Shown: positions 14,251-50,400 of the stretch, in pieces
Position numbering within the stretch: position 1 is the stretch's first letter
Layout: the number at the start of each line of letters is the position of its first letter
Assembly: GCA_963514005.1 (NCBI GenBank)
Contig: OY740816.1
Location: forward strand, 16,554,001 to 16,618,000
From: Raja brachyura
Lineage: Eukaryota
Length of the DNA stretch: 64,000 nucleotides
Direction of reading: 5' to 3'
Position numbers and translations under genes: made by a program
Notes under the pieces: model-generated
Databases searched by the model: none
Told to the model about the DNA's origin: nothing
What the model saw: only the letters and a program-made list of their open reading frames with translations

Positions 14251-14408
14251 TCAGTTGGTTGGTGGTGCTTGAACAAACACCCCCCTCGAGTCTGTCCGTG
14301 ACAGTTTGGCTGGTGGCTCCAAGGAGTCCGTCACTAACATGGGCTCATTGTCCATTGGAATCTCTTGTTGGCTGTCATCATCACTTTCCTCTTCCTCCTC
14401 CTCTTCAT
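14251..14408 (-). CDS. RFX1: RFX1 last coding segment [12 protein letters not shown]...VFVQAPPTN*
   Basis: 158 nt ending in TGA at 14253-14251; acidic RFX1-type tail. Confidence 0.95.
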
Positions 14409-23400: not shown

Positions 23401-26400
23401 AGTGCTTGCAGCACCGGAGACCCCGGTTCGATCCTGACTATGGGTGCTGTCTGTACGGAGTTTGTACGTTCTCCCCGTGACCCGCGTGGGTGTTCTCCAA
23501 AAGCTTCGGTTTCCTCCCACACTCCAAAGGCGTACAGGTTTGTAGATGAAATGGCTTGGTGTATATGTAAATTGTCCCTAGTCTGTGTAGGATAGCGTTA
23601 ATATGCGGGGGTGGGGGGGTCACTGATCGGTGCAGACACGATGGGCCGAAGGGCCTGTTTCCACGCGGTATCTCTAAACTAAGCTAAACTAAAACTGAGA
23701 GAAAATTAAATTAAAGAAAATGTTGAAGCCTTTATTTTATCATTCTAATCTAAAACAATACCTCACCACTCTCCAATGATTTGTATGTCAAGATCAGGCG
23801 CTTTTCCACCCTTACTTTATGAGTTGCACACTTCTGAATATAATTTTGTTGTCACTCACACTGATAGTCCTGAGCCATCACTGGACTGGGAAGAATTGAA
23901 TCGCCAAAATGTCTTCCACAAGGTTTCAACCAAAGTAAACTGCAAGTTTACCATCACATCCAAGATCGCCTATAGAGATTAAATGGGAGTGGATTAGAGA
24001 TGTTTGTCTAAAACATTTAAGTCAAAAATGTTACATCCTACAAAATAAACCAGTTTGTAATAGCATTGACAAATTAGAAATGTATTTATTTTATCTAGAA
24101 TTATTAGTAAAACCATAATTTATTTATTTAGGTGAAAATCTTATCTGAGAAGGTACCAAACTTGTCATCCAGAACATTCTTGTTGATGATGGCATGGATA
24201 TCATGGCCTTGATACATATTTTAGTAAATCATACTCTAGTCTTTCCCATACACCTATGGTACTTACTTATGCTTTAATTATCCCTTTTGTCGATAATGTA
24301 AAACTCTTGAACACTCATCTAAGTATGATAATCTTCTCCCAAAGCTATCTTATACTACTTTACTACTCAGCCTTTGCACCAAGCAATTTTTTCAATCACT
24401 GGTAACTGCAACCACCATTTTATGTACCTTGCCCTCGATGTTCTTATCTTCATTAGCTCTTATTCATTCCCAACTCATATTCTTAAACATTTGCTTGACC
24501 TTGCCATTTCACCTGACCTCAGTGCTCCCATTATCTCAATCAAAGAACCACTACCTTGAAGATAGACACAAAATGCTGGAATAACTCAGCGGGTCAGGCA
24601 GCATCTCTAGAGAGAAGGAATGGGTGACGTTTTGGGTCGAGACCCTTCTTCAGGACTGGTCTCTACTCACATTGTCTGCCCCTATCCTCACCCCCTCTTT
24701 CTGTGTCTGTCCTGGTGAAAGCTCTCTCCCTATTTATCCATTATTGCACTTTCAATAGTATAACCTTCGTCTCTCCATTTGTCCCGCTTCTGTATCTACC
24801 TTGATTCCATTTGTGATGCTTTCATCCTCATTACATCCAGATCTTCTCCCCAAAATATAAGAATGTCACAAATCGGAAGCTTTGACTGTTATGTTTGGTA
24901 CATAAACTTGCACTTTTAATTATACACAATATACTGTATTATGAATATAATAACACCTCGCAGTGCTCCCGATAAAGGTGCTGGAACGCCTTGACGTGTT
25001 CAATGGAGATACCGTCAGGTAATGTCTTCCCCTGCAAGTCAATTTCAACAAACTCTGGTAGAGCCCGAGAGGCATCTGAAATATATTACACAATGAAGAA
25101 TGCAACAAGTTAAAATGCTTGCAATCAAATCACTATACTCTTAAAGGAGAATCTGAACACACTCGATCAATTGTCAAGCTCTTGAACAATATGGTGAGAA
25201 TGCTACTTTTACAGTTCTGTACTTGTATATTTGTATAATTGAACCTGTAAATTTCAAATATAAAAATTCAGAAATTGTTTTCACACCATTAGATTAAATA
25301 TCCAATTGGAAGGAGTTTTAAGAGTTTGTACGAGTTGTGCTGCATTGCTTTTGGTCATTTCAAAAAAACATTCATTTATGATCATGGAGGTGTCAATTAG
25401 CATGAGGTGCTTAAAGTTAGATCTAGCCATGTAAAATGGATCTCCATTTCAAAGTAAAATATGGATAAAATATTTTCCAATGGATTGAACAAGTATTAAT
25501 TTGATAACCAGAGCACATTAATAAGGGGAGAAGGTAGACATAAAAGCTGGAGAAACTCAGCGGGTGAGGCAGCATCTATGGAGCGAAGGAATAGGCGATG
25601 TTTTGGGTCGACACCCTTCTTCAGACTGAATGCGGGGACAGATTATTTGCATCAAAGATGATCATCAGAGCATCATAGACAATAATCCATTATATCGAAG
25701 ATAGACTCAAGATGCTGGAGTAACTCAGCGGGACAGGCAGCATCTCTGGAATCCATTATATCCTCTGTCTGCGATGAATACATACTTTTGCATGCCACCC
25801 CTTCAATCTCTATTATTATCTCAACAGAGATGTCTACTGTTTTCCTTGATCCATTAAATTATATTGTAGCTTTTCACCTCAAATAGATATCAATGAGATT
25901 ACTAAGCAGTTCATGAAAATATATGGCATATGATTTTGTACTGCAATAAAGTGTCTCAAAGCCATTTTGAATGCCCCATTCTGCATCTCCACAGTTATCT
26001 CTCATGAATGGAGCATTTTCTGGAAGGCTCAAACTTCACCACAGCAGGAAAATAAAAGATAGATACAAACAAGGTAAAAAAAGAAAAAAAAAGATTTGTT
26101 TTAACTGTGGGACGAATGAGATAATGCAACATTCAGATAAATTAGTTAGTGAAACAGATAATAGATTTTGGTTTCACTGATGAGCTGAAAATCGGTGAAA
26201 GCGTTACTATGTTCCCATTCGTGACTACCATAGCACTGCAATACAAAATCTATGTATTGCACCTGCTATAATGAATGTAGATCAACTCCAGTAACTCACC
26301 CAAGAATTGCTGATATTGCTGCACCTGAGCACTGATATCTGACAGGCCACCAGCCTGCTGTTGCCCAACTCCCATGCCATTTGTCATCCCTTCCACCTTC

Positions 26401-29400
26401 TGGATTGGCTTGAGTCTGTAACATGGAGAAAACGGACTGAAATACAGTCCATTCCTTTATGGTCAAAGTAGCATTTCCAAAAAAGTTAAATATAGAACAC
26501 GTCTTTTTTTCCCCAGTGTTGACATTTGATCCAGAATTGTAATCCAGAAGTAATTAATGCTCCAAATGGGACAGTCCATTATGAATGGTCTCTCAAACAT
26601 CAACACTGATACCAACCACAGTGACCTGGAGGTTAGCATCTAACAAATCTCTTAGAAGTGCCATCCACTGCTTTCACCACAATAAATGGTGACAGAAACT
26701 TGAGGACACCAAAATGCCCAACGTGGTGATGACAAAGTTAATCATGAAATTTGGAATTCTTCATTCAAGAATTATATGATGCAACAAATGTCGTTCTCTA
26801 AGGATCTGCAACAGGGGGTTCAGCTTTACATCACCTGAATGCCTGAAGGATCACTAAAGCCCGTGAACGTAATGACGTGCAATAATCTGCTTGAATAAGG
26901 TCAGAAAGATGCAAAGGAACAAAGAGAAACTCAGCAAGTGGCCAAAGTAACAGAGGATAGGGTATAGTGCAGGGAATTATAAAACAATCGGTATAGATCA
27001 GAGAATGACAAGTTGCTGGGTCTAAATCCTGGAACTCCCTGCCCAACAGCACTGTGGAGTACCTTCACCATAAGGACCGCAGTGGTTCAGGGCAGCAGCT
27101 CACGAACATCTTCTCCAGAGCAGTTAAGAATGGGCAATAAATGCTGCCTTGCCTGCGATGCCCTAATCCCAAAAATGAATTTTAAAAATCCTAAATGATA
27201 AAGAGACAAGCAGCAACGGTGAAATAGAGATTTAGCAATCCATGAAAACAAATGATTGAATATTAATTACCTAGATGTGCAGCGAAGTCATCAAATTAAA
27301 AGTAATTGAAAAGTTGACCATTACATTAAAAGAGTTGAAATTTATGGTATTGTTTCACAAATCAGTGGTCGGATCTAAAATAGAGCGCTATTTTCAGTTC
27401 AAGCACCAAACGCTAGGAAATACAATTTGGCCTTGGTAGCAATACAGCATAATGCTGAGGTTTAAATTATGAGGACAAATAATGTAAGGACAGATGCCTT
27501 TGGGTTTTTTTTAAACGGTAGCTGTCTCAACTGAGATGTCTAAATGAACAGAAAGCAAGTAAAATGCTGGCATCTATGACAAAAGGATGTTACAATAGAT
27601 ATATTGAAAAAACTGGACAGAGTAGGCATGGATTTATGAAAGGAAAATCATATTTGACTAATATACTGGAGTTAAAAGAACTCCAGTTCTTGGAGATAAC
27701 CATGCCAATTAAATGGATAGGAGTGAACCAGTGAATGCCATGTGTTTGGATTTTCAAAAGGCTTTATAAAATTATCAGTCAGGAGGTTGGTGAATGAGAT
27801 TAAGGCACATGCAATTGCAAAGGAAAAAAATGATTAACAGATAGAAAGCAAAGAGTGGAAATAAACAGTCCTTTGAAACAAAAACAAAACCTGGAGGTGC
27901 TGGAAATCTGCTATAAAAACAAAAAATGGTGGAAACACTCATCAGGTCAGGCAGCAGCTTTGGAAAGAGATGCAGTTAACTTTACAAGATGATTAAGGTT
28001 CCCCTATGCAAGAACTAGGAAATATAAACAAGTTGATATTTCCACAGATACTGCTGAGTATTTCCAGTTTGTACAAACAGATCTTCATCAGATTGTCAGG
28101 CTGTGACTCGTGAGTACTGCAGGAGTTGGTGCTTGGGACGCAGTTATTTACAATCTTGCTGAAGGGACCAAATGGTATGTTTCTAAGTTTGCTGATGATA
28201 CAAAACTCGGAGGGAATGCAGGCAGGGAAGAGGATTAAAAGGGGTTTAAGGGAATATAGTTATGGGCAAGAACATGGCAAATTGAATTTTCTGCAGAAAA
28301 GTGAGATTATCAATTTCAGTGCACAATGCAATAAATAACAATGTTATTATATTAGTGTAGTCATGGTTCAAGCAATCAACCTGCAGCAGAATGATTTCAA
28401 GCCTTGTTCACAATCCTTTTCTATTGTATTAAAAAATATCCTCTGAATCAAATCTCACTGAATGCAAAGTGCAGATACAGAAAGCTAATGGATTTGATGC
28501 TACAATAAAGATTACTGGACTTCGTTAAGCATGTACCTTCTCATTAATCACAGAAAGCACTATTGGAACCACTGCGCTTCATTTTAGCGATTAGTTGTCT
28601 TAAAAATATATACTTCCACAATCTGAATCAGTTGTAGATTCAAAATTGCCGCCTCTTCACCAGCATTAGCATGATGGGATCTTTGCTTACTCACCTCTGC
28701 TTCTGTGTGAAAGGCTGTTGTCTTATGGCCAAGTGTTGCTGATCCTCGATCAGTCGAATTAGTGGTGAATTTGCTTTAATCCGAAGCCCATAGTAATGAT
28801 ATTTTGAGTTTCCCCTAAAAAATGAAGATAAACATTTGATAGTCGTAATATAATTTCTTATAAAATGCATAGGAGGATCTGGATGATCAACCATGATTTG
28901 AGTCAGAAACATCAATTCAAGTCTTACATTATTTAATAAAACTGCATTGCTCAGTTATGAGCCCAGAATGCACAGAGTACACAAGATTGATATGAATCTT
29001 TGTGTCACATACATTTACCACACTGGGCCACATACACGCACCTTGCATATAATGTTGATTTTTAGTTTAGTTTAGTTTTGAGATACAGCATGGAAACAGG
29101 CCCTTTGGCCCACCGGGTCCGCGCCGACCAGCAATCCCCGCACGTTAACACTATCCTACACCCACTACGGGCAATTTTTACATTTACCAAGCCAATTAAC
29201 CTGTACGTCTTTGGAATATGGGAGGAAACTGGAGATCTCAGAGAAAACCCACGCAGGTCATGGGGAGAACGTACAAACTCCGTACAGACAACACCCGTCA
29301 TCGGGATCTAACCCGGGTCGCCGGCACTGCATTCACTGTAAGGCAACAACTCTACCGCTGCGTCACCGTGACTGCCGTGATTGTTGGAAAGCAGGTCCAA

Positions 29401-32400
29401 ACACCAGGTAAGACTGTTGCACCTGGCATTAAGGGATCCATATTTGGAACTCCTGGCTGTCCACCAGCAGAAATGGTTTAATTTCTTGACCATGCAAACG
29501 GAAGCTTGCAAGTCAGTCAAAGGGCAGTTAAGGATGGCCAAATGGCACCCTTTTCAGCAATGTCAACACTTGAAGAAACAAATGTTAAAGTAGGGGAGAT
29601 CCATGCGACTAACAGGCAAATTGCTACATGTCCTGTGAGAATCAGTATTCTAGTGCACATTTCACAACAAGAGACAATTTCCAGGCCACAATATTTACAT
29701 CTACATTCTTGTGCTGATGAAATTCATAATAATAAATGAATCCCTCCAATCAATATGAACTTCAAACATTCCAAGTCATAAACTGACCAATGGCCAAAAT
29801 GATTCTCAAAAACACGGTAAGTGTTTCGTTTGCCTCTCCCTGCAATCAATTATCACTACTTGGATAATTCCAACTCGAGGCAAGACATATAGAGTAAAGG
29901 AATGTAAATAAATAAACATTCTGTTCTATTCCTCCTTTCCTCAATTTTTGTAAATATTTCCTTCATTTTGCTTTTATTTCACTTTTCCTTGCACTTTTTG
30001 AATTTCAAAACAGTTCTAATATTGATTAATTTGCTATTTCACCACTTTATTCAGTACCACACACATTAATCTTTACAAAAGTAAGATGCCAAGATAAGTT
30101 AAGATTAATCTCATAATTTATCGGTTTCCATTGATCACCCTTTGGTGAACCATTCGTAATTACTTTTGAAACTTTCCAAAGTTTAGGAGCAATATCTATT
30201 CTGGCCACACAGTGGTGCCACAGCACATTGCTAAACATTTGACAGAATTAAAGCATGGCACAGCAGCTGTGGAGATGTGAAGCAAGAGCAGTTTAGATTA
30301 AACAGATCTGACAACATCTATGGAGGGAGAAAAAGAATGAACATTTCAGAATAATGACTTGTCTTCAGAACTGAGATAAGTTAGAAATAAAATAAGATTA
30401 AAATTGCAGAGAATGGGGTAAGGGCAAAGAGAACATATGAAAGGATTATGGTGGGGCAACAATAGTTGCTGCCTACCAGCACTTACAGCAACGGAGACCC
30501 GAGTTCGATTCTAACTATATCTGTATGGAGTTTGCATATTCACCGTGTCACCTTGTGGCTTTCTCCGAGGTCTTCGGTTTCATCCCACACTCCAAAGACG
30601 TAGAGGTTTGTAGGTTAATTAGCTGAGAATAAATGTAAATTGTGTCTAGTGTGTGTAGGATAGTGTTAATGGGTGGGGATCGCTGGTCAGTGGGGACTTG
30701 GTGGGTCAAAGGGCCTGTTTCCGCACTGTATCTCTAAACTAATCTAAATTATGATATAATTAAGTGCAAGAGAAAGTAAGATAAGTCCTAGTGGTGCTGA
30801 TTGAAAGAGGGTGGGTAATGCTAGGTGAATAACAAAAGGTATGTCGAGAGGACATCTAAATAGATTTTGAGTATAAACTGAAACACTAGCAAAGGATAGA
30901 AAAATAAAAAGACACTGAATGGCAGGAATGTGAAATTGTTCTCTTTATCTTGTGTCATCAAGCCTGTGATATGCCATCATAAAAAGGGGTGCGGTTCTAC
31001 AAGTGTTTGTTGAGCTTTGTCTTATTCTGCCTTTATTCGTTTACTTGACTTTCTAGAATATGCTACGATAGTCAGTTTAATAATGAATACAAGATCACCA
31101 AATTGACAAGCCAAAGCAGCTACATCAGATAATTATTTCGTTTAGTTTAATTAAGAGATACAGCGTGGAAACAGGCACTTCGGCCCACCGTGTCTGCGCC
31201 GACCAGCGATCCCTGCACACTAACACTATCCTAAACACACTAGGGACAATTTACAATTTTAACCAAGTCAATTAGCCTATAAAACTGTACGTCTTTGGAA
31301 TGTGGAAGGAAACCAGATATCCCGGAGAAAACCCACGCAGGTCACAGGGAGAACGTACAAACTCCGTTCTTTTGGAATATAAGCAGGCTTACATTAAACT
31401 GTCATTATGATTAGAATAATGAGATGAGAAAGGCTCAATAAACTACAATAAAAATTGACATGTCACCCCAATAAAATGTTTTAATACTGACATTGTGAAG
31501 TAAAGATCCTTGATATGTTTAGTTAGGAGGGTGAAAAACTGAAAGTAACAAATTATTTTACAATACTCGTCTAACCATTTTAAGTTTAACAAAGGACTTT
31601 CAAAAGACAGTTTGGTCTGCAATCCCAAGCTTTGCTGAATACTCTGTGAAAATTTTAAGGTAAGAGCTAACCTTGTGCCAAGTCTCCGAGTCCGGAGTCC
31701 CATAAATACTGATCGTATCAGTTTGCCAAATGAGGCAGCATTTACTGGCTCTAGTTTTTGCTCCTGACAGTGTAACAGGTAATGACAGTACAAAGTGCTT
31801 CGGGGCAAGCTAACTCCTTCTGCCGTTTCATAGTTATCCAATAACCACTGAACCTGTGCAAAAACAAAAAAGAATGGATTTTTATCATTTTGATATGTTG
31901 CTTCCTTGCAATATCATTTTATCATAAATTTAATTATTTAAATGCAACTTAAAAGGGCCAATTCAGCAATACAGTATTAAATGTATAATATTTAACAGTA
32001 CAATTCCACAGAAGAGGAACAAAAGGCAATTCATGCAAGAAGATATATTTTTTGAATTTTATTTAAAATACAGCATTCAAACAGTAATTTTAATAAGTAA
32101 TTGATCTGCCGTCACATTGTTAACAGCCAAAAGGGAAAATGAATTGGGATAGACTTAACTTGCAGATTGGGTCAAAATATGGCTTGACAGGTTTGTTATT
32201 GTAAAACCCTTATTTTAATTGATTCCATTGGAAATAAAAAATGCTTAGTTTCTAAAGCAAGTAAAATTTTATCGACAAGAAAATCGAACATTTGCCCCAT
32301 TTTATAATTGAGAATTGTCACAATCTTTCTCTCGGTAAATCTCTGTTTTTCTCACTCTTTTTCGTTCTTCCTCATTCTTCCTCTCTCCCTCTTTCTATAA

Positions 32401-35400
32401 GCCTTTCCACCCATTGTCTTTCTTCTGTATAACTCCCTCTCTCTGCTCTGCCTGAAGGTACAAGATTCACATGTACATTAATATTGTGCCACTGTTTCTA
32501 TTCACATTCATTTCTTAGGTACTTAAATGATACCATATTTAAAAAAAATAAACAAAGCTCTCTGAAAGTGATCTACCCCACACGCACAGTAATTTGGTCT
32601 TCTACATAGCACTTCTGTTCATTATGAATCAATTGAATGCACTGCACAGACTGTTTGTGCTTTTTAGGTGTATTTTTGTGATATATGTTATATAAAAGGC
32701 TCAGTGCACTGCTAGTTTCAAAACCCTACACCAAATTAATCCTTCAATAGTTCTACAAAATAGTTCAATATTTCTATAACATATTTCAGTATCATTGATA
32801 ACATGTGCAAAGTCTGTAAGTATTTTATACTAAATTGAAAAGCACAGTCTTGTAATAATCCGGAATTCTCTATTCATAATTTTAGGAGGTTTGTCAAAAT
32901 TTGTTTCCATTCTAATATATTTCTTGATTAAACACCAATTCAGTAAAACAAAAGTGAAATCAAATCCTTTTTAATTGAGTATCGGAGTCTAAGAAGCTAT
33001 GAATCTGGGAGTTCAAGTGTCTATAAAGCACAGATTTTTCATTTTAGTAATTTAAAATATGGGAACTCTCATGTGAGATTTAGCCGCAATACTCAGTGCA
33101 ATTATTATTCTAAACATTTTATATATTTAATATTTATAAATGCCTCTTTTTTACTCCACATCCAATTTTTATTCCAATCTTGATGTACAAATTCTTCTAC
33201 AACTACTGTAAATGCTATTCCACTAGACAACAGAAATTAATCTTGCTGTTCTAGATGTTTACTATCTCTTTTTTTTAAAGAGCATCCCCCCTTTAAAATA
33301 TATTTTATCTGGAAAAAGCCAATTAAATTTGAGCACAAAAGTGATAGCAATTAAACTGTGACAGGTGATCTTGTGATTCAGATCTTCAACCTTCTGTTTG
33401 GGAGGTAGGTGTCTAACAATTGTGCTATTGACCATCCTTATTGAACAATACAAAACAGAAACCCCAGGGGAGTCAGCACTTGGAAGAGTTGACCGGTGAC
33501 TCACTGTGGCTGGAGAGGCACGCATGGTGTGACTGTAAGACTGACTGGAGCTCCCCAGCATGTAACCTCCCTGGATGACATAGGTCCCTCCTCCTGGGTT
33601 GGCCACAATCTGCCCTCCCGTCACATACATTGGCACCGTTCCACTACTGACCACGTTCTGCGAAGTCACCGGCGTGGCAACCTGGTTTGGCGTCCCCTGA
33701 GATTCATAGTAACTCCCGCCTGTGTTCTGGTTGTACAGCTGAGTTTCAGAATAAGGATAGTTGTTTGAACGTCTGAAATGAAAAAGTATGGCAGCGGATC
33801 CACAAAGATGACTTTAGTGACAGTTTGTCGACTTATATTGAAAAATACATTTAAAAACCTTTTCTGGTGGTAAAAGTTAAAATAAATCGCATGGAATTAA
33901 ATATTATTAATTATTTTGTTACCAAAGAGGGGCATGCAGTTCTTTTAATTTGTTCCATAGATAGCCTTTCTCTAAAACAAAACAGGTATTCATTATGATA
34001 ATAATATTAAATGCAGGTATTGAGTTCATCAAATGAATCTGAAGATACAAAACGTGTGCATTTCAAATATTATGTAATGTTATGAAGTGTTGCACATAAT
34101 GCACATAACATAATGTTATGGTGGTTGCACAGTAAATGCAAATATGTTCTGTAAAGCTGTAACGCTGTAAATACTGTTTGAAACACAATGATAGCTGATA
34201 GTATATTTGTTACAATAATCTAAAATTCTGAGATCAATGTCTGAGACAGTTGCTTAATAATAGAAACTGATATCAATCAGAATTTGATTAAATTGGCAAA
34301 TAAATAGGAAAGCAAATTCTCAGTGTAGCAATTGTGTCTATGTTTATAGCAGCAAGTACTACAAAAATATTTTTTGTGAGATAATTGACATTTGCTTCCC
34401 TCCAAGTAACTTTTTATCAATTTGTGTTGGTGCTAAGATAGGTAAGATAGTAATCAATTTTACATTTACTCACGTAGATTAACAATTACCTATTTGTGGC
34501 CTTCTTTGGTACTTTGAAGATTCTAATTCCATTTTATTTTTTAACTATACAAACTTCCAGCTTTAAGAATAGCATTATCAAGCGCACTTTTATTTATCAG
34601 TCCTTGAAGTGTTCTGACAGTCAATATTTCTACTCACATTGTGCTTCCTGTATAGCTGGCATCACCCCCTTCTACATACTGCACCTGGTTCGAGTAGACA
34701 TGTTGAACAGGCTGCACTGGGACCTGTTGTAACTGCTGAACCTAAACGTTAAGATTATCCAGAGAGAAAAGGTAATTATGGCGCATCTATTAGTTAAAAA
34801 TATTAACAAGATTTATTTTGAAGCAAAGTACTACTTTTTCTTACTCATTGAAATAATATGACAGTCTACATGTACAGTTCTGGGCACAGTTATTTGAAGC
34901 CTGTGAGGTATCAGATGCCATAATCACAAGACTGCCGTCACTAACCTAATGCACCTAGTTAACATGGTTAAACACCAAGTCGTACAAGCCCAGGAGGGTC
35001 TTATTCTCTTATTCTTTCCTTGAATCACTGTCTAGTGCCTGGACATCCAGATGTAAGAATAGCTTTTTCCCTGAACCTTTCTTTCCAGAGTTGCTGCCCC
35101 ATAATCTTACTTTAGCTCCACCACATTTGGTTATTCCATTGTTGCACTTTTATCTTTTGTGTACTATTTCAGATTGCATGACAACTTTTGCATTATTCTG
35201 CTGTGTTGCATTTGTTTGTTTACTTTATGAGCTTCGTGCAAACAAGGAATTTCACTGCATCCTGCTGCCCATGACAATAAATTAATCTGATATCTTACAT
35301 CTGGGTACATGCCGGGGAACAGATTAAACAGGTTCAATAGACAATAGGTGCAGGAGTAGGCCATTTGGCCCTTCGAGCCAACACCTCCATTCACTGTGAT

Positions 35401-38400
35401 CATGGATGATCATCCACATTCAGTACCCCGTTCCTGCCTTCTCACCATATCCCCTGACTCTGCTATCTTTAAGACCTTTATCTAACTCTCTCTTGAAAGC
35501 ATCCAGAGAATTGGCCTCCACTGCATTCTGAGGCAGAAATTCCACAGATTCACAACTCTCTGGGTGAAAAGGTTTTCCTCATCTCTGTTCTAAATAGGCT
35601 ACCCTTTATTCTTAAAGGGTTCAGGTGCATAGCCCAAAAGAACAAACACTCCGTCGCATCACTGCTAAGGCTCACATATAAAGGGTAGCAACGGATCATT
35701 TATTTGTATTCAAGCAGGGATCTCCATTCTGAGGAATCAGATAAATCAACATCAAAAAAGAAAACATTAAAGTGTGATGAGTACATGAAGGTCTAGCTGC
35801 ATCTCAATACTAATGATGTAAATACTTACAATTAAAAATATTTTTTCTATAATTAGTGTTTAAATTCAATTTCTTCAAATCCAAACGTCACCACTCATTC
35901 CCACAAGTATTCTTTTAATAATCGTTCAATCTTCCAGAGTCTTTACCCAGGGTAGGAGAATCAAGAAACAGACGACATTGTTTAAGGTGAGAGGGGAAAG
36001 ATTTAATTGGAACCTGAGGGGCAATTTGCTCACTCAGAGGGTGGCGGGTAACTGGAATAAATCGCCAGAGGAAGTAGTTGAGGCAGGTACAATAAAATAT
36101 TTAAAAGACACTTGAACAGGTACATGGATAGGAAATCTTTAGAGGGATATAGACCAAATGCAGGCAAATGTGATTAGTTTGGATGGGGCATCTTGAATGG
36201 CACAGACAAGTTGGGTCGAAAGGTCTGTGTCCGTGCTATAGGACGATATAACAAAATGAACTGTTTGCAGCCACTATTCACAATTCAAATTATTGCAAGC
36301 CAATTATTATTTATAGAATTATCAGTCTTGTAAATTATGCATGCATTGCAACGTCTATACTAGTGTGAATGTGTTGCACAATTGCTTTTCTAAACCAATG
36401 CAGGTCCTAAACATGCAGTTCAGTCCATTTTTACTGGACTACTAGTCTGACTATCCAAGTACAATAAATATTGCAAGCTTATCTTAACAAATGCTATTTC
36501 AAAAGTACAATAATTATTTTGCATCCCCATAGAATATTTAGCTATCCATCATAGGACTTTCCTATAGGAACTATGCATCAAAAACTAAACTGTAATTACT
36601 GATTTTTCAATAGGTTTTTATTTTCATTATTACCCACAGAAATGTTTCCTTATATTCAGTTGAGGCAATAATAAAAAGATCAATTTCATTATTTTAATCT
36701 TGCAATTAAAAAATGTCCAAACTCACTTTTAAGATATTTTAGATTGTATGCTAGATGTTTAAATAGAAATATAAAGGTTTATTTCTTATCTAGGTTATCG
36801 AGAAGTTTGATCACCTAGGTTTCCAAATGCTCAAACATCTCTCTGACTTGGGACAAAAATGCTCAGCAAGAAACACTAAATGTGTTTGCCTCATTTTATA
36901 TTTGTTTGCCAGTATATTAACCTGTTTACCAAGATAAAATTTACTTCAGACAACAAAAACTGATTTTCTTTTGGGCCGAGGTCCAATAAATATTTTTAGA
37001 CTTTCCCACCGGAAAATGTCTATATCTGTCTGTGTTTCTATATTTGCTAAAATACAATACTTAATAGATAGATCAAATATCAACACAGCCTGCTAAGAAC
37101 TTAAATAACGAACCCTTCCATCCATTCTTATAACTATTTCCTATTTAACCTACTTTAAGTGCAGTTGGTCCAGTTCCGAAAACTAATGCTTGAGGGACTC
37201 GCTGAACCTTGACTCGCTGCTCAGGGCTGGCTGGTAACATGGAGAAAAATGGAACCTGCTCAATAATCACTTTCTGCTCTGTGCTGGGTAGATGCTGGGG
37301 TGTAAATCGAATCACTTCAACTCTCGGTGCTGAGGTAGAGGGCATCATATGTAGGACGTGCACTTTGTGTTCTGGACTCAACGCTTGGGAATTTCCTAAC
37401 TGATGTTCTTCATGAATACTGTTCCTTGAGCCGGGTGAATCGGCAACTACCTGCAGCTTCTGATCTTTCTCTAGCAAACTGGAAATCTCATTCTCCGTGC
37501 TCTAGTGTATAATATAAGCAAATTATTCAGAATACAACACACGTTCCAATGTAAAAAGTCACAAAGATGGAAGAAGGATGAACATGCCAGCATTGAATGG
37601 AAATGAACCAACAAATCATGAATAATCTGACCATTTAAGTGGTTTCTGAAATTAACTCTGGAGTATCTTAAAGGAGGGTATTAATCAATGAGGCTCTCTA
37701 TCCAGCTCCCATATAAAACCATAGTAAAAATTATTCTTAATATGAAAAAATATCGTTTATAAACATGGATAGTACAGGAAACAGAAAAGAAACAAGCTTA
37801 TGTTCATGAGGTTGACCAAAAAAATAATTAAAGGTTCATAATCTGTGAAATATGTAACCGGAAACTGTTTATCAATAATTTGGATACAAAAATAATTCCA
37901 TTCTCCAGCATGGTTCATCCCCCCACTTAGACAAAAACTAGTTTACGCAATTCACAAACATGCATATTAAACCAACTGCAATAACTGCATTGGTTATGGC
38001 CGCACACGTTAACCTCGAAATAAAAATTCAGACTTAATATTTATCCAAAAATATGCACTTAAAATTTAATTTGACTGTATCTCTCACTTAGAATTTTTTT
38101 TTTTTTTTAATTCCCATGGGAATTTTTCAGGGAAACTAGCTGGCAGCTATCTCTATTGGGCCACTGAATACGAGAACAAACTTTGGTTGACTAAAGAACT
38201 ATTATTCAAATTTTTGTCTTTTTCATCAGGGGGATGAAAAGCAAAGTGTTTCTGAAGTGAGGGACCAGAAGATGATTTTTAATGGCATTGGAATGGGGTC
38301 ATGTGATACTCTATGCCATTTACTCCATTCATTTTTAATTTGTAGGTTCTTGCAGCTGCCAGTACTTAAACTTGCAGTTGTGACCCCGGTGCCCAGTCCT

Positions 38401-41400
38401 TAAAGCACTGGTTCACGATCTCCAGCATGGCACAAAGTTGAGCTGTGGTCTGAAACTTGGCAATGAAGGGGTGGGGACTGGGGGGTCCAAAAATGTTTTT
38501 TTTTAAATTATGGATAATTCCATTGAATGACACACAGCCTTGTGCAAAGTTCAGCAAGCAAGGCATAGGCAGGTAGACCGATACGAGTGCTCAGTGTTGT
38601 CACAATATACATTGCAAGTCTCTGAGTGATTTTTCAAAGCCCATGGACAAAATTATTTCCCATTTAAACGGAGCAGAGGAACAGGCGATCTGGTGAATAC
38701 AGATGCGACACAGGAACCAGGGCCTGACGGGACAGATGCTAAAGCTTCTTTGCTTCCAAACAATCCAACAGTTTCTATACCAGGTCTTAATGGTTTATGA
38801 AAGCGGCTGATCATTAGCTCCTCAAAAGGGCCATTAAGAATAGGCCATCAGTGCTAGCCTTGGCTATGTCCCATAAAACGATTAAAAACATAATATTTTT
38901 GTGGGATCTGGTTGGGGGCATATTGTCTGCCAAGTTTCCTTCATTAAAACAATGACTATATCTCATGTGGGTAAGAGAGGATATATAAATACAAGTCTCA
39001 TTTTCATTTTTTAAGGATGCCAGAAAATTAACAAACAACTGATTTGCTTTCTATATTTAGGAACTACAGATTATGTCAGTGGATAGCACAGAGGCGCAGC
39101 AGTTGAGCTGCTGCCTTACAGCGCCAGAGACCCGGGTTCGATCCTGAAAATGGGTGCTGTCGGTGAATTCGCCCAGTGACCGAGTGGGTTTCCTCCGGGT
39201 GCTCTGGTTTCCTCCCACGCTCCAAAGATGTATGGGTTTGTAGGTAAATTGGCTTTGATATGACAATTTGGCTAGTGTATGAGGTATTTGTTGGTCAACG
39301 CGGACTCGGTGGGATGAAGGGCCTGTCTCTGTGCTGTGTCTCTGAAGTCTAAAGTCTGATTTTAGAGGCGAACAGCATCAAACTTGGTTTGCTGATTCTA
39401 ATTTCAATATTACCCCTCCCAAAGCCACTCCATCCATAAACTCCCAATTTCTTCCATTCCCACTCAACCCCAGCCCAATTCAATACTTAACTACAAATAT
39501 CTCAGCTACATATAGATGGCATATTTCTGTAAATGTCTCCTAATGTGCAGTGAGTGATGTGAAAGTGGGATAACATGGAATTAGTGTGAATGGGTAATCG
39601 ATGGCCAGTGTGGACTCGGTGGGCCAAATGGCTTATGCCATATATCCAAACTCTAAACTAAACTAAAATGTCCACCTAGTTCACATATTTAATAGTTCAA
39701 ACATGATTTAAGCAAATAGCAAAATTGTCTGGCAGAAAATAACTTTAATGACAGGAACTGTACTGTAATTCCTTTGCACAATTGAACATTTTGAAGTAGA
39801 GTCATAATTAATGATTAACAAAGTTGGTTGATCTCAATTTAAACCACGTTAATTTAAGTGGAATATAAATACAAAATAGGGATTAAAAAATAATCAACAA
39901 TGTTTACCTCCTGAGAAACATGAACTTGCTGTAGCGCTTGCACTGATAACTGTTGAACCTGGCTGGTTTTAGCAGCCTGTGGTGTTGTTTGTACAACAGA
40001 TCTCTGCAGAGGCAAAATAACATCAATTAATTCTACTTCCACTTTGAGCTAAAAGATCACCTTTATAAGAAAGAGCTGATGGTTAATATTTTAACAGCTA
40101 CTCTTCTGCAGAGACCCAAAGGGATTGTTGTATGAGATGCCTTCTTTCTTAACAGAGCAGATAACATGATACAACTAGAAATGTCTTCTTCTGCTGAGAG
40201 CATAAATCATTTCCACAGGAATATTTTAGCAACTTTAATCCCTATTGTATTTGAGATGGAGATGCCAGAATCAGTTAATAAGTTGAACTTTGGGTTTCCA
40301 TTCCTTGATGATCTTCTGACTAGCAGCAGGAAACTGTTATGGGGAGAGGAAATGTAAGGCGATGTCACAAGTAGAACTAAAAATAATGTTATCAATAGAC
40401 TGTTCTATCCTGATGATGATTTAAGATTTAATTTCAGGAGGAGATGGGTGCATCTCATTTAAACTATACGAATATTTTAAACTATAGTATTTCCTTTAAA
40501 CTATACAAGTATTTTAAAATTGCTAATATAATAAATCATTGTTCAAAAACAATAGATATCCTGAGATTTCCCATTTCCTCTTAAAAATGTTGCTTAAAAA
40601 TGTGCTATTTTGATTCCCTTTACTAGACATAAACTTTTTCTCTTTAGCAAATGCACAATAATAAGTATTGTGAGGAGAAAACCTTGTCCAAAAAATATAA
40701 AGCATATGACAGAACATTAATGAAATAGATTTGTAAACATTTTCTACAATGTTTTTGTTCAATCAAATATCAAAAATAATATCATTACGAGTATTTTTTA
40801 AATCCAAATTTTGAACTAATCAAATCCAAAGATCATAGAAAAAATTTGAATAACTGGTATGAAGGAAGCAGGCCGTTTATTGAAGGTAGACAAAAATGCT
40901 GGAGAAACTTAGCGGGTGAGGCAGCATCTATGGAGTGAAGGAAATAGGCAATGTTTCGGGTCGAAACCCTTCTTATTGTGATGTGTGGTTAGATTTATAG
41001 ATTTTCAGAGGTCTATTTAATTACTGGAGCTATTAAGATCGCTGAATTAAAAGTGAAGTCCAGAAGATGTCTGGTCAAAAGATGGCTGTTGTTATGCTGA
41101 GCTTTGTTTGAGCAACTGTTTTAGATAACATTCTTGCAGCTCACATTTCCACATTCAGTACTTTTTTTGACAATTTCAGATGTCTTTCAAATCAACTTGT
41201 TGACATGCTTTTTGTTATTCCGTTACCTTTGCAAACACTGTCTGCTGGGCCTATATTGCTTCATTCATTCGCTCCTGTTCCCACCCTATCTCAGAAATTG
41301 TCTTTTTCTCTCTCTTACACTTCCCATTTTAAATGCCTCTCTTCTCTGTCCACAGATTCTGACCCGAGTACTTACAATATTTTGATTCAGCGACCAGGAG

Positions 41401-44400
41401 CTGTTAAATATGATGAAAAGCTGTCGCAAGTTCAGTTACACAGAAGACAACCCCAGATCAATGAATACTGTATTTGTTACTAAAAAAAAGACAAGCACTC
41501 AATTTACCAGGCCAACGCACGACAACAATTTTGAAGGATCTCCCAGTGTATGACATAGACTGAGCTCAACAATGGTAATCATGCACATCAAATGTTAGGT
41601 CGAATGAAGGGCGTTTAGTACAACAATATAAAGTGGATGGGATCCTGGTTCTGAGGGGATATTATAGAATCTGGGGCTATACTCCTTAAAGATTGTGCGA
41701 ATTTAATCGTGGGTTCAAAGTGATGATGGGGTTTGACAGAATTAGAAAGAGAAATTGCTTGCATTGACGAGCCAATTGGTTGCCAGAGGAAACAAGGTTG
41801 AGAATCAAAGGCGGTACAAGCAGAAATATATTTACATAATGAGGTATGATCTTGATGTGCCTGAACGGATGGTGTGAGCAGATGAAGTTGCAAATTGGAA
41901 TTGAACAGGTAAACTTTTAGAGTTAAAGAGAATAATATAGGGAGAAGAATGGGCAGATTGGTCTCCTTCTGTAAAAACATTGTATGATGCTATTAATCCA
42001 ATCAAAAATAATTATTACTAACAAGTAAACAGGTATTATCTTTCCTTAATCTATATAGCATAAAGTGTTTTTTGGTTCTTTTTTCACTTAATGGAACCAG
42101 TGAAATTAGGTGAATTGAAATAAATCTATTGAGATTTTGTGTTTGAAGTACAATTCTCATGTATTGAAACAGGTCTTTTGATTGCTTATCAGTAATGTAC
42201 AGATACTAAAAACATCAACAATGCTCTGGAAAATGCATTGTCCAAAACAGACAAACAAATTCAGTAATTAAATATTTCAAGATTTCCCTTGCAATAATTA
42301 AAATTGTTATTATCAGTACAATTAAATGAATAAACTATGCATTAATCTATTATTTTACATATATCTGCAATATCAAAACAAAAATAACCTACTCCCAGCA
42401 AAGAATATTTATGAGTTTAGGCCATTGCACAAAACAAATAAATTAAAATCGCTACAGGAAGGCATTTTGTCATTGTAACTTTCAAAGACTGACACAAGAC
42501 CAGATAACACTACAAAAAAAACGACAAAACATTTAAAATAGTGACTGTGAAGAAAATTGACAGTTTTCATGATGACAATCTAAATAAAAGGTTTCCTATG
42601 TGAAAACTAAATTAATGTATTTATCTATTTTGAACTAAAAAGTGTGAACATAGAATATAAAATTCCTGATTTTAGCTCTGTATAATTTTGACAAAATTGC
42701 TCCATTGAAGAAACCAAAAAGATAAATTATAATTAAATCACTAAACACAGCCTTTATCAATATGGAACAACAATCTTCATTTGACAGCCATAATAGGTAC
42801 GAAAGGCAAACCTTAAATGTTACAAAATATATGTTAAAAAATAAAGGAAATCTGCATAAATGTTATAAACAATAATTTTCAATGTTAACCAAACTTACTA
42901 TTACATCAGGAATTACAACCATTACTTTGGGGAGTTTAATGTGGACTTTATCATTGGAATGAAACGGTAATGAGAAGAATTGTGGTTTCCTCCCAAAAAT
43001 AATGATGGGTTACGACAAAACAAATAAGAAAAATCCAATTCCAGTGGTGAAAAAAACATCATTAGAAGCTTTATATCTATAGTATGAAAAAAAATGTTAG
43101 GTGTTTTAAACCAGTGATCTGTTGTGTAAGATGCTCCACCAGCAGTGGTGGTGTAATCAGATTTCATTGCATTGCCATTAAAATTGGAAGGAGTTTATGT
43201 TAAAATTTGAATGAATTATGAAGCAAAAGCAGGGACATAGCAATTAGTAGATAGTTCTTTCAGCAGACTGGTAATATGCTGAAGAGTATTCAACTGTGAT
43301 ATTAAGTTCAATGATGTTGTAACTTTTGATATACTTTATGCCAGTCACCAACAAAAAAAACGTTGAAATTCAAAACATAGACCTTCAGAGACACGAACCA
43401 ATATTTTGGATTGAAAAAGAAATGTTGACTCGCACCAGCCAAAAAGACATTTGAATAAAAAACACGTACTTTTAAACCCATTAACAATAAATGAAACTTA
43501 CATAGCCACACAAACTTATGTCAAGAGTAGTATTAAAAATCATACCCAAAACATATGAATACTTGGACAATATGGTCATGATGAAGTAAAAAAGATAAGA
43601 GATTGCAGATGTTGGAATCTGGAACAAAACACTGCTGGGTGAACTCAATGGGACAAGCAACACCTGTGCAGTCAAAGGTGTGGCCAACATTTCATATTGA
43701 GACCATGCATCAGGACTGACAGTGTGGAGGGAAGATAGCCAGAATGTAGAAATGAGAGTGAAGGTGAGACAGCAGCTATTAAACTGAGACAGGATGTTGA
43801 GGAGTTGTTGTCAGGTACCCATGGGTTTCAGTCGGTTTATAGTAGATATTGCTGGATAGTTTGTCTCCTGGACTCTAGAGGTCTCTCTCGAGACCTAGAA
43901 AAGGGAAAGAAGTGTCAGGTGAATTTGTGTGCAGGTGGAAGATGGCGCCAAAGTTGTTGTGTTCTGTGCGTATGCTGAAAGCAGAACCAATGCAGTCATC
44001 GGTATAACAGAGAGAAAGTAATGGATGGGTGCCAGAGTAGGTTTGGGATGAGGACTGTTCGATATAGACAACAAAAAAACATATTTCTCCCACTTTCAGG
44101 TAGCCAACACCCATGTTTTTTCCCCATCCCCACCAATACACCCAAGTTCTTTCTCCCTTTATTCATCTTTTCCTCCCTCATTACCGAGACTCATTGCCCT
44201 TCTCTGTCTGGTTCCATCTGCCCATCACTCACATACCTATCCACCTTTTTAAAAATCTGTTGGTTTACATAGAAAATAGGTGCAGGAGTAAGCCATTCAG
44301 CCCTTCGAGCATGCACCACCATTCAATATGATCATGGCTGATCATCCAACTCAGTATCCCGTACCTGCCTTCTCCCATACCCCCTGATCCCTTTAGCCAC

Positions 44401-47400
44401 AAGGGCCACATCTAACTCCCTCTTAAATATAGCCAATTAACTGGCCTCAACTACCTTCTGTGGCAGAGAATTCTAGAGATTCACCACTCTATGTGTGAAA
44501 AATGTTTTTCTCATCTCGGTCCTAAAAGACTTTCCCCTTATCCTTAGACTGTGACCCCCTTGTTCTGGACTTCCCCAACATCGGGAATAATCTTCCTGCA
44601 TCTAGCCTGTCCAACCCCTTAAGAATTTTGTACGTTTCTACAAGATCCCCCCTCAATTTTCTAAATTCTAGCGCGTACAAGCCGAGTCTATGCAGTCTTT
44701 CTTCATATGAAAGTCCTGACATCCAAGGAATCAGTCTACCTTTCCTATCCATTTCTCATTCTCCCACATGGTTGCATCTGCACATAGGATCTTATAGGAT
44801 ATAGGATCTTATAGAGACATATAAAATTATAAAAGGACTGGACAAGCTAGATGCAGGAAAAATGTTCCCAATGTTGGGCGAGTCCAGAACCAGGGGGCAC
44901 AGGCTTAGAATAAAGGCGAGGCCATTTAAGACTGAGGTGAGAAAAAACTTTTTCACCCAAAGAGTTGTGAATTTGTGGAATTCCCTGCCACAGAGGGCAT
45001 TGGAGGCCAAATCACTGGATGGATTTAAGAGAGAGTTAGATAGAGCTCTAGGGGCTAGTGCAATCAAGGGATATGGGGAGAAGGCAGACACGGGTTATTG
45101 ATTGGGGACGATCAGCCATGATCACAATGAATGGCGGTGCTGGCTCGAACGGCTGAATGGCCTCCTCCTGCACCTATTTTCTACGATCTATGATCTATGC
45201 ACAACATCACTCCTTATCTCGTTATTACTTTCTCAAGCATAACCTAGGAAGCATACAAGATTTTGGTTGTACTTTCCAATTTTTCTGACTTTAACATGCT
45301 GAGGATATTAGCTGACATAAAACAATGACCAAAATAGAGTGATTTGTAATTAAATAATGCTGACAGAACACTTTATTTGAAGTCTGAAAGCAATTCAAAG
45401 AACAAGGATACGGATAACACAGCATTGCTGAACTCACATCAAACAAAACATTTTGCAATCAAATTATAAATTAATATTATTTCTCTTGCAAACTAAAAAT
45501 AAATTATTTGTACTTATCATTTAGATAAGTTAAACAGAGGACCAGGCCTCTTTTGAAGCTAACATCATCACTTTGTGTAAAATAATTCAAGTAGAGTTTA
45601 AGTATGTCGCATAGAAGTAGGTATAAGCACTATAGTGCAGTTCCAGAAAAAAAAAAAACAGGATATCCGATTTATACTGGTCAGAAAAGTCCAACTGATC
45701 TCACTGAACATTGTGTAAATGAAGCAGAGATGGCATGTATAAGTATCACTGCCTATAATGATGTTCATTATGATGTGCAAGTGATGTTGGAAGTGTTAAC
45801 TGTATAGTCACCAGAGACCAAGGCTAAGTTAGAGCAGACACTGTCTCTAATCTCATTACAGGCTGGTTTGTCTGGCTCCAATCACAATATGTCTATCTTA
45901 CGCATTTGTAATAGTCACCGGTGGATCCGCAAAATAATATCCGACTCAGTATTTTATGACCAATCAATTCCAGACATACTTTGTGAATAGTTTGTTATGC
46001 TTAAAAATGAGCAAACTTTTTTTTCACTGATCATTTGCTGAAATTAATCCCTCTTACAGTATTATTATCCCATCTTGGTGAAAGCAAGTTGACCATACAA
46101 AAAATAAATGTATTTTTCTTCTTAATTTCCTTAATTTATTTTCACTTTTCATTTGCTCCAGAAGCTCCACTCTTGATGAGTTAAATTCTACAAGTGCCAA
46201 GCACTGCTGATCACACAGTACAGGCTAATTCTTGAAGCAAGCATTGACTTGATATTAATAGTGTTAGGTTTTTACTCTAAAAAATACATAAGAGTAGTAA
46301 TAAGTACTAGTCTGGATTTTGCGATTAGCAGAAGAGAAATAGTATTCACAAGGATTAAGTGAGTTTTGCGGTCTTGATATTGGCAATCATCAGAAATCAG
46401 CTTAAAAAGAAGTCCCCAATATGCAGCAGCCGCAATGTCGTCGAGCTAGCTGAACAACAATCATGTTGAAGCATGCCAGGGAGCAAAAGGGAAAATCATT
46501 GTTCAAAAAGGTTCCAAAACGCCAAATGTTGACTGGAACATAAATATATGATTATCTAGAAGTTGGAATAACATAAATATTTTTTTAATCTACTTCATTT
46601 TAAATAGTCATGAGGCAACATAATCCACTTATTTAGGGATTTTAATGGTTGAAACTTTGCCCGGTGGTAATTATTTCTTAGTACTGCATTCTAATCTCAC
46701 TTGGAGTTCATGAACTAGAAATTGATATTTTAAAGCAATGACTACCTGTGAATGGTTGTTGAATCGCTGCCAGTAACGTTGAGATTTCTGCATTAAACAA
46801 TGCAGATGTGGAAATCCCAAACTTGCTCTCGATTTCAGTGAATTACCACAAACAATGATAGTTCTAATATCATTACTGCAAAACCTAGGCCACAGTTTCA
46901 CAAGTCTGCCAATTCAGCTAACAATGTTAATCATTTACAGAAAACCTTTCGTATTTAACTGTCCCTGAATTAAGGCCTTTGATATTTTTAATTCATATTA
47001 CTACAATGTACAAAAATCCAGATCCGAGCAGCCTGCATACAGTTATGCCATTTTTCATTTATAGCGAGAATAATAGAGAATAGTATCCATTACAAATGCA
47101 AAAGATCATTCTGAAATCTACTTACTAACAGAATATTTATCCAAATCTGAATTAGTTTTAGATCAGGAATCAAAATTATCCTTCAGTAACATTTTCTGAA
47201 TTTGTGGCAACCTCTATCCATTGACTAAATTAACATTGCTAAAACTGTTACCTGATGCATTACTGCTACCTGCTGGACTCCCGGCAGCTGGAGCTGCGGG
47301 AACTGGTCCACTTTCGATTGCACATCATTCTGTACTAGAAGCCTCTGCTCAGGAGAAAAGTAATACATTATAGAGAATCGAACTTTAAAAAGTACTGCTA

Positions 47401-50400
47401 AACAATTCTAATATGAAGGGCAATTCAGTCAATATTTACAGGTATATCCAAAGTCTGAAATTCCCATACCACACAATTTCCATTGAAAAAAAAAACACTT
47501 TATTAAATTTGAGGCCGGCAATTGTTAGTAAACAATTAATACACTCAGGACAATGAACGACAAATGAATACTTACTGTATATTGAAAATATGAATTGATT
47601 TCATGCACTTCGATACAGAAGCATCGTTAAAAATGTCAGATTTTGTGCAGTTGGATTACCACCTAGATGTTCTCTAACTATATATTTTAGTAAGTCACAC
47701 TATTCCCTGCAGCAAATTGGTAATATTCTGATCCTATAATATATGTTAATTTTATACCATCTGCCAACTTGTAAGGCTGTGGATATTTTCATCCTAATAT
47801 TTTCACTTCCACTCCAATCCGCTAAGTATTCTGATTTGTCAAGAGGAGCAAAGTACGAACTACAGATGGCTGGTGTTCTGTGCGGTCACTGTGAAGTACA
47901 TTTGCTTTTGGTTAGGAATGTATGGCAATTTTGAAAGGACTAATTTTTCCATTGATCAATCAGTTACATAGTAAGACTACTTTCGGACTATAATGTCAGG
48001 AAGTAAATCTGTGTATTTTTGTACCTAACTTCAGTTAAACCAGCATCTGCAGTTCCTTCCTATACAGTAAATTTTGGTTGGCCAATAAATAGTTTTATTT
48101 TAATTGTAATTTCTAAAAATATAAATAACTTCTGCAGAAGCTCTAGAAATACCAATAAGAAACATTTATTGCTCTCCACAGGTTGTAAAATCATAGGCAG
48201 AAACATTAGAAAGCACCAACATTGTCTTTCCTGGTCATTTAGGTGCTAACATGATCATCATAAAGAATTTGTTTCTTAAGCATAGTCATGACCTTGTTAA
48301 GTAGTTGTAATTACATAGTAATTTGTTGTTGTAATCTACATGGAATCCCAAAGCTTGTCCATGGGAACGAATGAAGTAAAATAAGCAAAGTATTCTTCTT
48401 TAGTTTGTAACATAAAATATGTACTTAAATTATTTTCTTGATGATTTATCAATGTGCAACAAGCTGAAATTATCAACCTTATTAGCCTCACCAAGGCCAT
48501 CAGGTTGGGGGTAAGACCTCTCCTGATGTGGAATTAACCCAATCCAAGCATAATAGAACTCTAAGCAGTAAATCGACTCTGATGAAAATATACTGAGTTT
48601 GAAGCAGAAGATGATTAAACAAGTAATAAATATTAGTTTTATAAATTGAAAAGAAATTCACAACTCAGGTGGATGTCGTTATATGTGACTTATGAGTTTC
48701 AGCAAATAATATGTTGCCAAGGAGTAATTTGGCTATGCACAATAGTGAGGCTGCAGCTCCAGCTTTATATCCCTTCCACTTTTAATTTCCATCGGCTCAA
48801 AATGTGACTTTTAATTCCAACTAGAGAGTTGAGATTGCATGTATGAATAATAAAAATTCCATCCAAATGGAACAGGCAGCAGCATTCACTATAACTGACA
48901 CATTTATTTTCTGCTTCAGAGGAAAGATGTTCCATCACATGGGAAATGACAAAATAAAGAAAAATCCATCGGAAAAAATTACATAATACTGGAAAAATTA
49001 TTTCTCTTCTTGGAAGATATACCCCCAAGCACCCCCAGAAAATAAATTATTTTTCGCTTTTTGACTTCCTGCATTTTATTTCCTCTCCCCAAAACAAATA
49101 TGTTGCATATATCTTCAATAGCATTTTCAGATTCAGTGGTTGCTTTATCATTTTTATCATTATCCTGATTCTGAGTCACTGTTTATTGCAAAAATAAAAG
49201 CTATTGGGGTATATTTTGGTTCTGATCATTCGTCTAGCACAATAGCATTAGCTGCCCCTTACATTAACTTTCCAAAAACCGATTCCATTGCCATTAGGGC
49301 AGCACAGTGGCACATCGGTAGAGCTGCTGCAATACAGCGCCAAAGTACCGGATTCAATCCTGACCACAGGTGCTGTCTGTACGGAGTTTGTACGTTCTCC
49401 CTGTGACAGCATGGGTTTTCTCTGGATGCTCCAATTTCCTCCCACATTGTGCAGGTTCATAGGTTAATTCACTTCTGAAAATTGTCGCTAATGTGGACGA
49501 CAGAAATAGTGTACAGGTCGGCGTGGACTCGGCGGGCAAAAGGGCCCGTTTCCACAGGGCATCTCTAAACTAAACTAAAATCCTAGCAAGACAAAATAAA
49601 ATGTAATAAGACTCCATATCAAATGATAAACAAGTCATCAGGTTGGCTAATGTCTTTTATAGAATATTTAACAAATCAGCAACATTGAAGTGTTTATATC
49701 ATGAATCATACCGAATGAAAACAAGCCCTTCAGTCTGCGCCTACCATGAGGTAACCATTTTACACTAATTTATGAATTGAATCTCATTCTGCCCATGTTT
49801 TCCTCGACTTCCCCCAGATTCAACCATTAGGGGCAATACATATTGGACAATTTATCCATCAACCCTCAGGGTTTTGTGCAAAGAAACTGCAGTCACCGGA
49901 GTAAACCAAGGTCGTCATTGGAAGAATGTGAACATCTCGAAGAGCAGCACCTTGAGGTCAGGATCGAAAGTGGATCACTGTGAGCTATTATACGAGTTGC
50001 ACCATTATGCTGTGCAACAAAAAGAGTTCAATGTAATTTAGTTTTGATAGAATAATTAATAAATGAATGCGCATCTTAAATTATCACTTTGTAATTTTAA
50101 CCAGGCAAAGAAGGTCCTAAAGTTATAAGACAAGAGATGGATTATGCATTATGCTTAATTTGCATTTTCCAATCTTTTTCTGCCACATCAATAAAGAACA
50201 AAACAAGGTTAAATTGTATTAGTACGACTGTAGAAAAGTGAATTGATCATGTGTCTTGAAATTAAAATTGTACTACATGAAGAATTATTGAGCACTTTGG
50301 CAGTGCCAAGCGTTTCATTTGTTGAGTGGCTGAGGCATCACAATGATTGCACTATTGGTGGCTCTTGTCTCAGCGTCAGAAGGCTACAAGTTCAGGTTTT

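Follow-up and report, generated by a model that had tools for sequence, protein, structure and literature searches.

A cassette exon in the RFX1 activation region with orthologues in both cartilaginous and bony jawed vertebrates

RFX1, a transcription factor essential in mammals, is usually described as a single protein of 979 aa. Does an intron in its activation region hide a further coding exon, and what would such an exon do? The question was raised by a stop-free frame on the minus strand of the window (the whole 64-kb stretch of DNA analyzed here), which a first-pass annotation had proposed to be a lineage-specific cassette exon. We placed the frame within its host gene using tblastn with shark RFX1 proteins together with Pfam; the first coding exon of RFX1 gave no match in the tblastn search of the window. 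The relevant features, all on the minus strand, are as follows.

14254..60549, minus strand: coding exons of the host gene RFX1, including those for the DNA-binding and BCD domains (tblastn with shark RFX1 proteins; Pfam)
39908..40003, minus strand: upstream RFX1 exon, ending ...HVSQE
37502..37504, minus strand: 3' splice site TAG, whose pyrimidine tract is weak and broken up by A (joint 39908>37501, CT..AC ends on the plus strand, run X4)
37154..37501, minus strand: RFX1 cassette exon of 348 nt (116 codons) in phase 0-0; contig 17 of run X4 spans both junctions
37355..37378, minus strand: motif copy 1, SPEHKVHV, codons 42-49
37262..37285, minus strand: motif copy 2, STEQKVII, codons 73-80
37154..37228, minus strand: conserved core, codons 92-116, with the third motif copy at its start (72% mean identity in 34 bony-vertebrate inserts)
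37148..37153, minus strand: non-consensus 5' splice site, AAA followed by GTAGGT
34638..34741, minus strand: downstream RFX1 exon, starting VQQLQQ...

The frame proved to be built as the first-pass annotation had described it. Read from 37501 to 37154, it encodes 116 amino acids with zero stops, begins directly after an in-frame TAG (37504-37502) and closes at AAA|GTAGGT, with a TAA following; the plus-strand frame across the same positions contains many stops. Its phase of 0-0 in a phase-0 intron also holds, with 39908 completing the last codon of the upstream exon and 34741 starting the first of the downstream exon, and so does its higher GC content (47%, compared with 31% and 33% in the adjoining 348 nt on either side). 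We judged the splice sites by eye rather than with a scoring program, and the acceptor's pyrimidine tract is weak, as had been remarked, being interrupted by A. An open frame of this kind is weak evidence for an exon by itself, because frames of at least 116 codons turned up in 69 of 500 Markov simulations of the host intron; the case rests on conservation and splice junctions.

The frame had also been said to resemble none of the repeats in this DNA. In agreement with this, blastn with the exon and its flanks found no second copy in the 64-kb window (best other match, E = 0.19), none of the 14 repeat matches in the intron touched the cassette, and repeat-derived reads from the runs aligned to 33400-40300 stacked elsewhere in the intron. 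We rejected an origin as an exonized repeat because the cassette has no multi-copy similarity within the window. We likewise rejected the idea that the cassette arose as a copy of another N-terminal exon of RFX1, since a profile of the conserved core scored no higher than shuffles on 71 exon-less proteins (72 were searched, one of which was a mis-sorted inclusion form). Several other RFX1 N-terminal exons begin with a similar QR..VQ word.

To ask whether the exon is used, we turned to spliced sequence. Four of 21 listed sequencing runs were aligned to positions 33400-40300 at 85% likeness. Three of these (X1, X3, and X4) come from relatives, are presumed to be RNA, have no stated tissue, and were selected for containing the exon; contig depth in them is not a measure of inclusion level. 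The two junctions anticipated by the first-pass annotation, 39908>37501 and 37154>34741, both occur in contig 17 of run X4 (581 nt, depth 282.5), together with 34638>33772, all with CT..AC ends; no other contig of X4 has depth on the two flanking exons. In run X1, a 1,668-nt contig (depth 12.3) lies on both flanking exons and not on the cassette, which is covered only by a separate 215-nt piece (depth 4.6), so that skipping in this run is inferred from contig coverage rather than from a displayed joint. Run X3 gave low-depth pieces only, and run X21 (raw RNA, ~6 in 100 reads sampled) had zero depth on any RFX1 exon. Run X4 also shows contig depth within introns, 21 at 36865-37095, shortly after the cassette, and 33 at 34324-34554, shortly after the exon that follows it; with a relative's run aligned at ≥85% likeness, this may be conserved intron sequence or a retained intron. 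Gene models provide both forms side by side: the Mustelus RFX1 RefSeq models X2 (942 aa) and X5 (826 aa) differ by exactly the cassette, and a pair of mouse RFX1 models (971 and 861 aa) differ by exactly the corresponding insert. The segment thus has AG...GT ends in a spliced contig, occurs in inclusion and skipping forms, keeps the frame, and is free of stops, which identifies it as a cassette exon.

We next considered how widely the exon is distributed. The cassette peptide is 97% identical to the corresponding part of RFX1 from Mustelus, Scyliorhinus, and Pristiophorus and 87% identical to that of Callorhinchus, which marks the window as DNA of a cartilaginous fish. A protein search with the exon and its flanks, surveyed over the best 120 of 627 matches, revealed an insert at the same junction in RFX1 isoforms of coelacanth, caecilian, newt, frogs, turtles, alligator, squamates, placental mammals including human and mouse, and, in diverged form, gar. 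The proposal that the exon is lineage specific must therefore be dropped. The bony-vertebrate inserts range from 81 to 135 aa and are all in frame. Automatic RefSeq models carry the cassette at this junction in human (XP_047295148, X2), mouse (XP_011246631, X1), Mustelus (XP_078090995, X2), and Callorhinchus (XP_007905290), the human and mouse inserts being 110 aa each. The direct join to VQQLQQ that the first-pass annotation gave for human RFX1 is thus the skipped form, and the human gene has the longer form too. Because orthologous inserts at the same junction are found on both sides of the cartilaginous/bony fish split, the exon predates that split, which lies over 400 million years back. 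Comparison of these proteins therefore indicates an ancient in-frame RFX1 exon common to cartilaginous and bony jawed vertebrates.

Conservation is concentrated at one end of the peptide. Across 34 bony-vertebrate inserts (an alignment that includes three mis-trimmed rows), the average identity to the window rises from 15% over residues 1 to 49 through 28% over residues 50 to 91 to 72% over residues 92 to 116, and V97, P103, and Q104 are invariant. Identity of this 25-residue core to the shark sequence is 84% in coelacanth, 72% in human, and 44% in gar, compared with 75%, 69%, and 69% for the upstream exon and 83%, 80%, and 83% for the downstream exon; the shark-human value for the core thus falls between those of its two neighbors. 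The last 25 residues are therefore under constraint. A dN/dS estimate had been suggested for the exon, and between the window and run X4 (16 differences, 7 of the 14 listed being synonymous) it came to ~0.3 (binomial P = 0.026), on few changes. The core is present in 112 of 206 long RFX1 proteins, a set biased by the queries used. A profile search over 8,000 scored candidates picked out 61 proteins, of which 56 are named as RFX1 or as RFX-domain proteins and 5 are read-through fragments without a name. None of them came from RFX2-4, birds, teleosts, marsupials, or jawless fishes, which is weak evidence for absence. A 50%-cluster search returned five fragments of the cassette exon and one unrelated long repeat protein.

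The recurring motif reported by the first-pass annotation holds up in some of the peptides compared and not in others. Its third copy, SPEQRVKV, begins at codon 92. In the window, chimaera, and coelacanth peptides, none of 100 shuffles reached the score of the three-fold motif; in the turtle peptide the motif has decayed (50 of 100 shuffles reached the score), and the motif score of the human insert comes from proline runs and not from the three-fold motif.

What kind of protein segment does the exon add? Pfam PF04589, the RFX1 activation region, matches the skipped form as one stretch (104-261) and the included form as two, confirming that the cassette lies inside the activation region, which it splits. 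The cassette peptide alone matched nothing in Pfam (0 families), the PDB (0 at E up to 10), or the ESM Atlas. We therefore rejected the idea that it is further PF04589 sequence, as it has no profile match by itself. AlphaFold on the cassette peptide, with a shallow alignment of 17 sequences, gave a mean pLDDT of 55.8, a pTM of 0.16, and no strands, with pLDDT peaking (68-74) over residues 91-110. A folded domain was rejected given this pTM and the lack of PDB relatives for the peptide, which is instead predicted to be disordered. A full-length RFX1 model (P0002; 53 sequences) had a mean pLDDT of 37, low nearly throughout including the BCD domain, and is uninformative. In composition the insert is poor in glutamine (8-9%, versus 14-26% in the flanks), and its core is basic (net +3) and aliphatic, as opposed to the neutral to acidic flanks. 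Since the insert is Q-poor and its conserved tail basic, it looks like a different module inside the activation region rather than more of the same region. The suggestion that the exon enlarges a disordered activation domain thus survives as to predicted disorder; enlargement is doubtful.

A short conserved block (72% versus 15% identity) in a variable, predicted disordered context is the pattern of a short linear motif. We compared nine motif patterns with 18 inserts. The specific patterns occurred in only 0 to 2 of the 18, and none of them accounts for the core; the patterns common in the inserts were the low-specificity ones (SIM-like, LIR core, and MAPK-docking-like). A PP1-docking-like K/R-V-x-F word occurs in the human and mouse inserts only (P0063 and P0100; 2 of 18), the other inserts having I or L.

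A published mouse exon bears on where the cassette is used. Table 2 of PMC4111849 includes Rfx1 tNE-6, which is 330 nt long, in a set of testes-enriched novel exons from mouse (mm9 chr8:86608465-86608794). The mouse insert of 110 aa corresponds to 330 nt, and both primers given there translate into it; given this equal length and primer placement, tNE-6 is the mouse orthologue of the cassette. The accessible text presents it without a protein prediction, conservation analysis, or function. The same source describes tNE-6 as "barely expressed" in testis, and its enrichment test counts exon reads rather than inclusion, so high testis expression of the Rfx1 gene could explain the enrichment. It reports that 24 of 26 exons tested were confirmed, a set that may not include tNE-6. 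The suggestion that the exon may be tissue specific is thus backed by a testis-enriched listing in mouse, which rests on read counts for a barely expressed exon.

Taking these results together, we lean toward the following explanation, which we rate slightly above an even chance: a predicted disordered segment with a cofactor-binding tail, spliced in or skipped, changes the regulatory output of a testis-enriched form of RFX1. The weak splice sites would make skipping the default, and the exon would be included in some tissue, probably male germ cells. Once included, it would place a 116-residue predicted disordered linker in the middle of the activation region. The conserved basic-hydrophobic tail may act as a short linear motif, judging by its conservation pattern only, and likely binds a cofactor; it would thereby change which cofactor RFX1 recruits. 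A bolder version, which we put forward tentatively and regard as doubtful, is that human and mouse male germ cells make an RFX1 that is 110 residues longer, with an undescribed protein-binding motif in its tail kept since the jawed-vertebrate ancestor, and that this redirects RFX1, by itself or paired with RFX2, toward a germ-cell cofactor on which the sperm-tail gene program depends. In the accessible text of PMC2797782, Rfx1-4 are reported to be high in haploid germ cells, with RFX1 pairing with RFX2 in spermatocytes, and that of PMC4498915 reports that RFX1 deletion is embryonic lethal in mice.

Alternatively, the exon could work as an attenuator: by interrupting the Q-rich activation region and thinning it out, or by folding back on RFX1, it would reduce or abolish activation without a dedicated partner. 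This would suit an insert that falls in the middle of PF04589, is Q-poor with a basic tail between neutral to acidic flanks, and has a front half that tolerates any length and sequence; moreover, activation and repression regions of RFX1 neutralize each other, as cited in the accessible text of PMC2797782. A pure spacer, however, needs no 25-residue block conserved like constitutive exons, and if the tail folded back, the intramolecular contact would still amount to a binding motif. We consider attenuation unlikely.

Another possibility is that the constraint acts on RNA or DNA, through splicing elements near a regulated donor or an overlapping enhancer, with the peptide a tolerated by-product of a minor isoform. 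The conserved block does adjoin the donor, and the non-consensus donor itself appears conserved as GTNGGN, because read-through models of bony vertebrates have Val-Gly after the exon, as the window does. The low mouse expression described in the accessible part of PMC4111849 and an excess of AGAA words in the exon (6, compared with 2.4 expected from the intron) point the same way. However, core substitutions are conservative (K/R, V/I), every indel keeps the frame, synonymous changes are in excess, and the EQWVEL and QQKVV motifs upstream in the insert are also kept in most tetrapods. On balance we find an RNA- or DNA-level explanation quite unlikely. Counts of RBFOX, QKI, STAR, NOVA, PTB, and CELF motifs in the intron showed no clear enrichment, and an Rfam search with the exon gave no match. 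Some rodent and turtle models (P0164, P0172, P0173, and P0048) use an inner donor after ...PQ, by which the core loses its last 9 to 12 residues, so this end of the core is optional too. The inner GT is missing in sharks, and codon 105 of the window (37187-37189) is Ala (GCA), not Val.

It is also conceivable that the cassette doubles as an internal first exon, starting an N-terminally shortened RFX1 from an internal promoter, in the manner of RFX4 in germ cells. RefSeq models that begin inside the cassette exist for Cetorhinus and Carcharodon (X5; P0015) and for Hypanus (X5; P0024), and downstream promoters of RFX4 are active in spermatocytes and spermatids according to the accessible text of PMC2797782. 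Such models may nevertheless be 5'-incomplete predictions, their start methionines are not conserved in bony vertebrates, and the run X4 contig uses the cassette internally, through both junctions. Just 2 of 112 core-bearing proteins start inside the cassette, the 8 further rows flagged as doing so being full-length frog proteins that the pattern missed. We judge this use of the exon very unlikely. Finally, a chondrichthyan-specific exon or a chance intronic frame, to which the lack of a clear match for residues 1 to 49 outside cartilaginous fishes (15% mean identity) and the equally long frames in 69 of 500 simulations might have pointed, is refuted by the same-junction orthologues from coelacanth to human and by the spliced contig in run X4.

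The isoform with a predicted cofactor-binding tail, which we prefer, belongs to a familiar kind. Cassette exons under tissue control whose disordered products carry linear motifs form a general class, and the RFX1 cassette, conserved and probably regulated, belongs with them. It shares with that class an in-frame length, weak splice sites, predicted disorder, and a short conserved block, and differs in being unusually long (81-135 aa) and old, with tissue regulation only partly shown.

Other RFX isoform changes offer closer comparisons. RBM39-driven skipping of RFX1 exon 2 in liver cancer, described in the accessible text of the review PMC13111335, likewise alters the N-terminal region and the regulatory output of RFX1; it removes the N-terminus (exon 2), whereas the cassette adds an internal segment. 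The germ-cell isoforms of RFX4 reported in the accessible part of PMC2797782 are testis linked too, but there the change is a promoter switch and here it is an internal in-frame exon.

What was already known is the exon sequence, in automatic annotations and in one mouse table (PMC4111849); what is new is how old the exon is, the conserved core it carries, and the connection of these records with one another. We found neither the age nor the core nor any function in print. In the accessible text of the review PMC8106159, RFX1 is a single 979-aa protein and splicing is not mentioned. Those parts of PMC2797782, PMC4498915, and PMC7498320 that were accessible deal with the testis context and make no mention of the cassette isoform, and the parts covered of the supplements of PMC8187152, PMC5630039, and PMC3905889 held no RFX1 match. 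Beyond PMC4111849 we found nothing on the exon in the mostly open-access literature covered. Since human RFX1 contains a coding exon of 110 aa, with a 25-residue block conserved to the level of the constitutive exons, the usual picture of RFX1 lacks an isoform that is probably functional, and variant interpretation likely lacks it as well.

The window also contains other variable or neighboring features on the minus strand. A second optional RFX1 exon (47252-47347, QRLLVQ...MHQ), whose acceptor has tandem AGs, is present in Scyliorhinus models and missing from Mustelus X2. In some shark models, an alternative acceptor at ~26438-26415 apparently extends the protein by ~8 residues following the DNA-binding domain (P0003 versus P0002). 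Downstream of RFX1 and on the same strand lies the first coding exon of CARM1, at 4221-4370 (Pfam PF11531, E = 1.7e-14).
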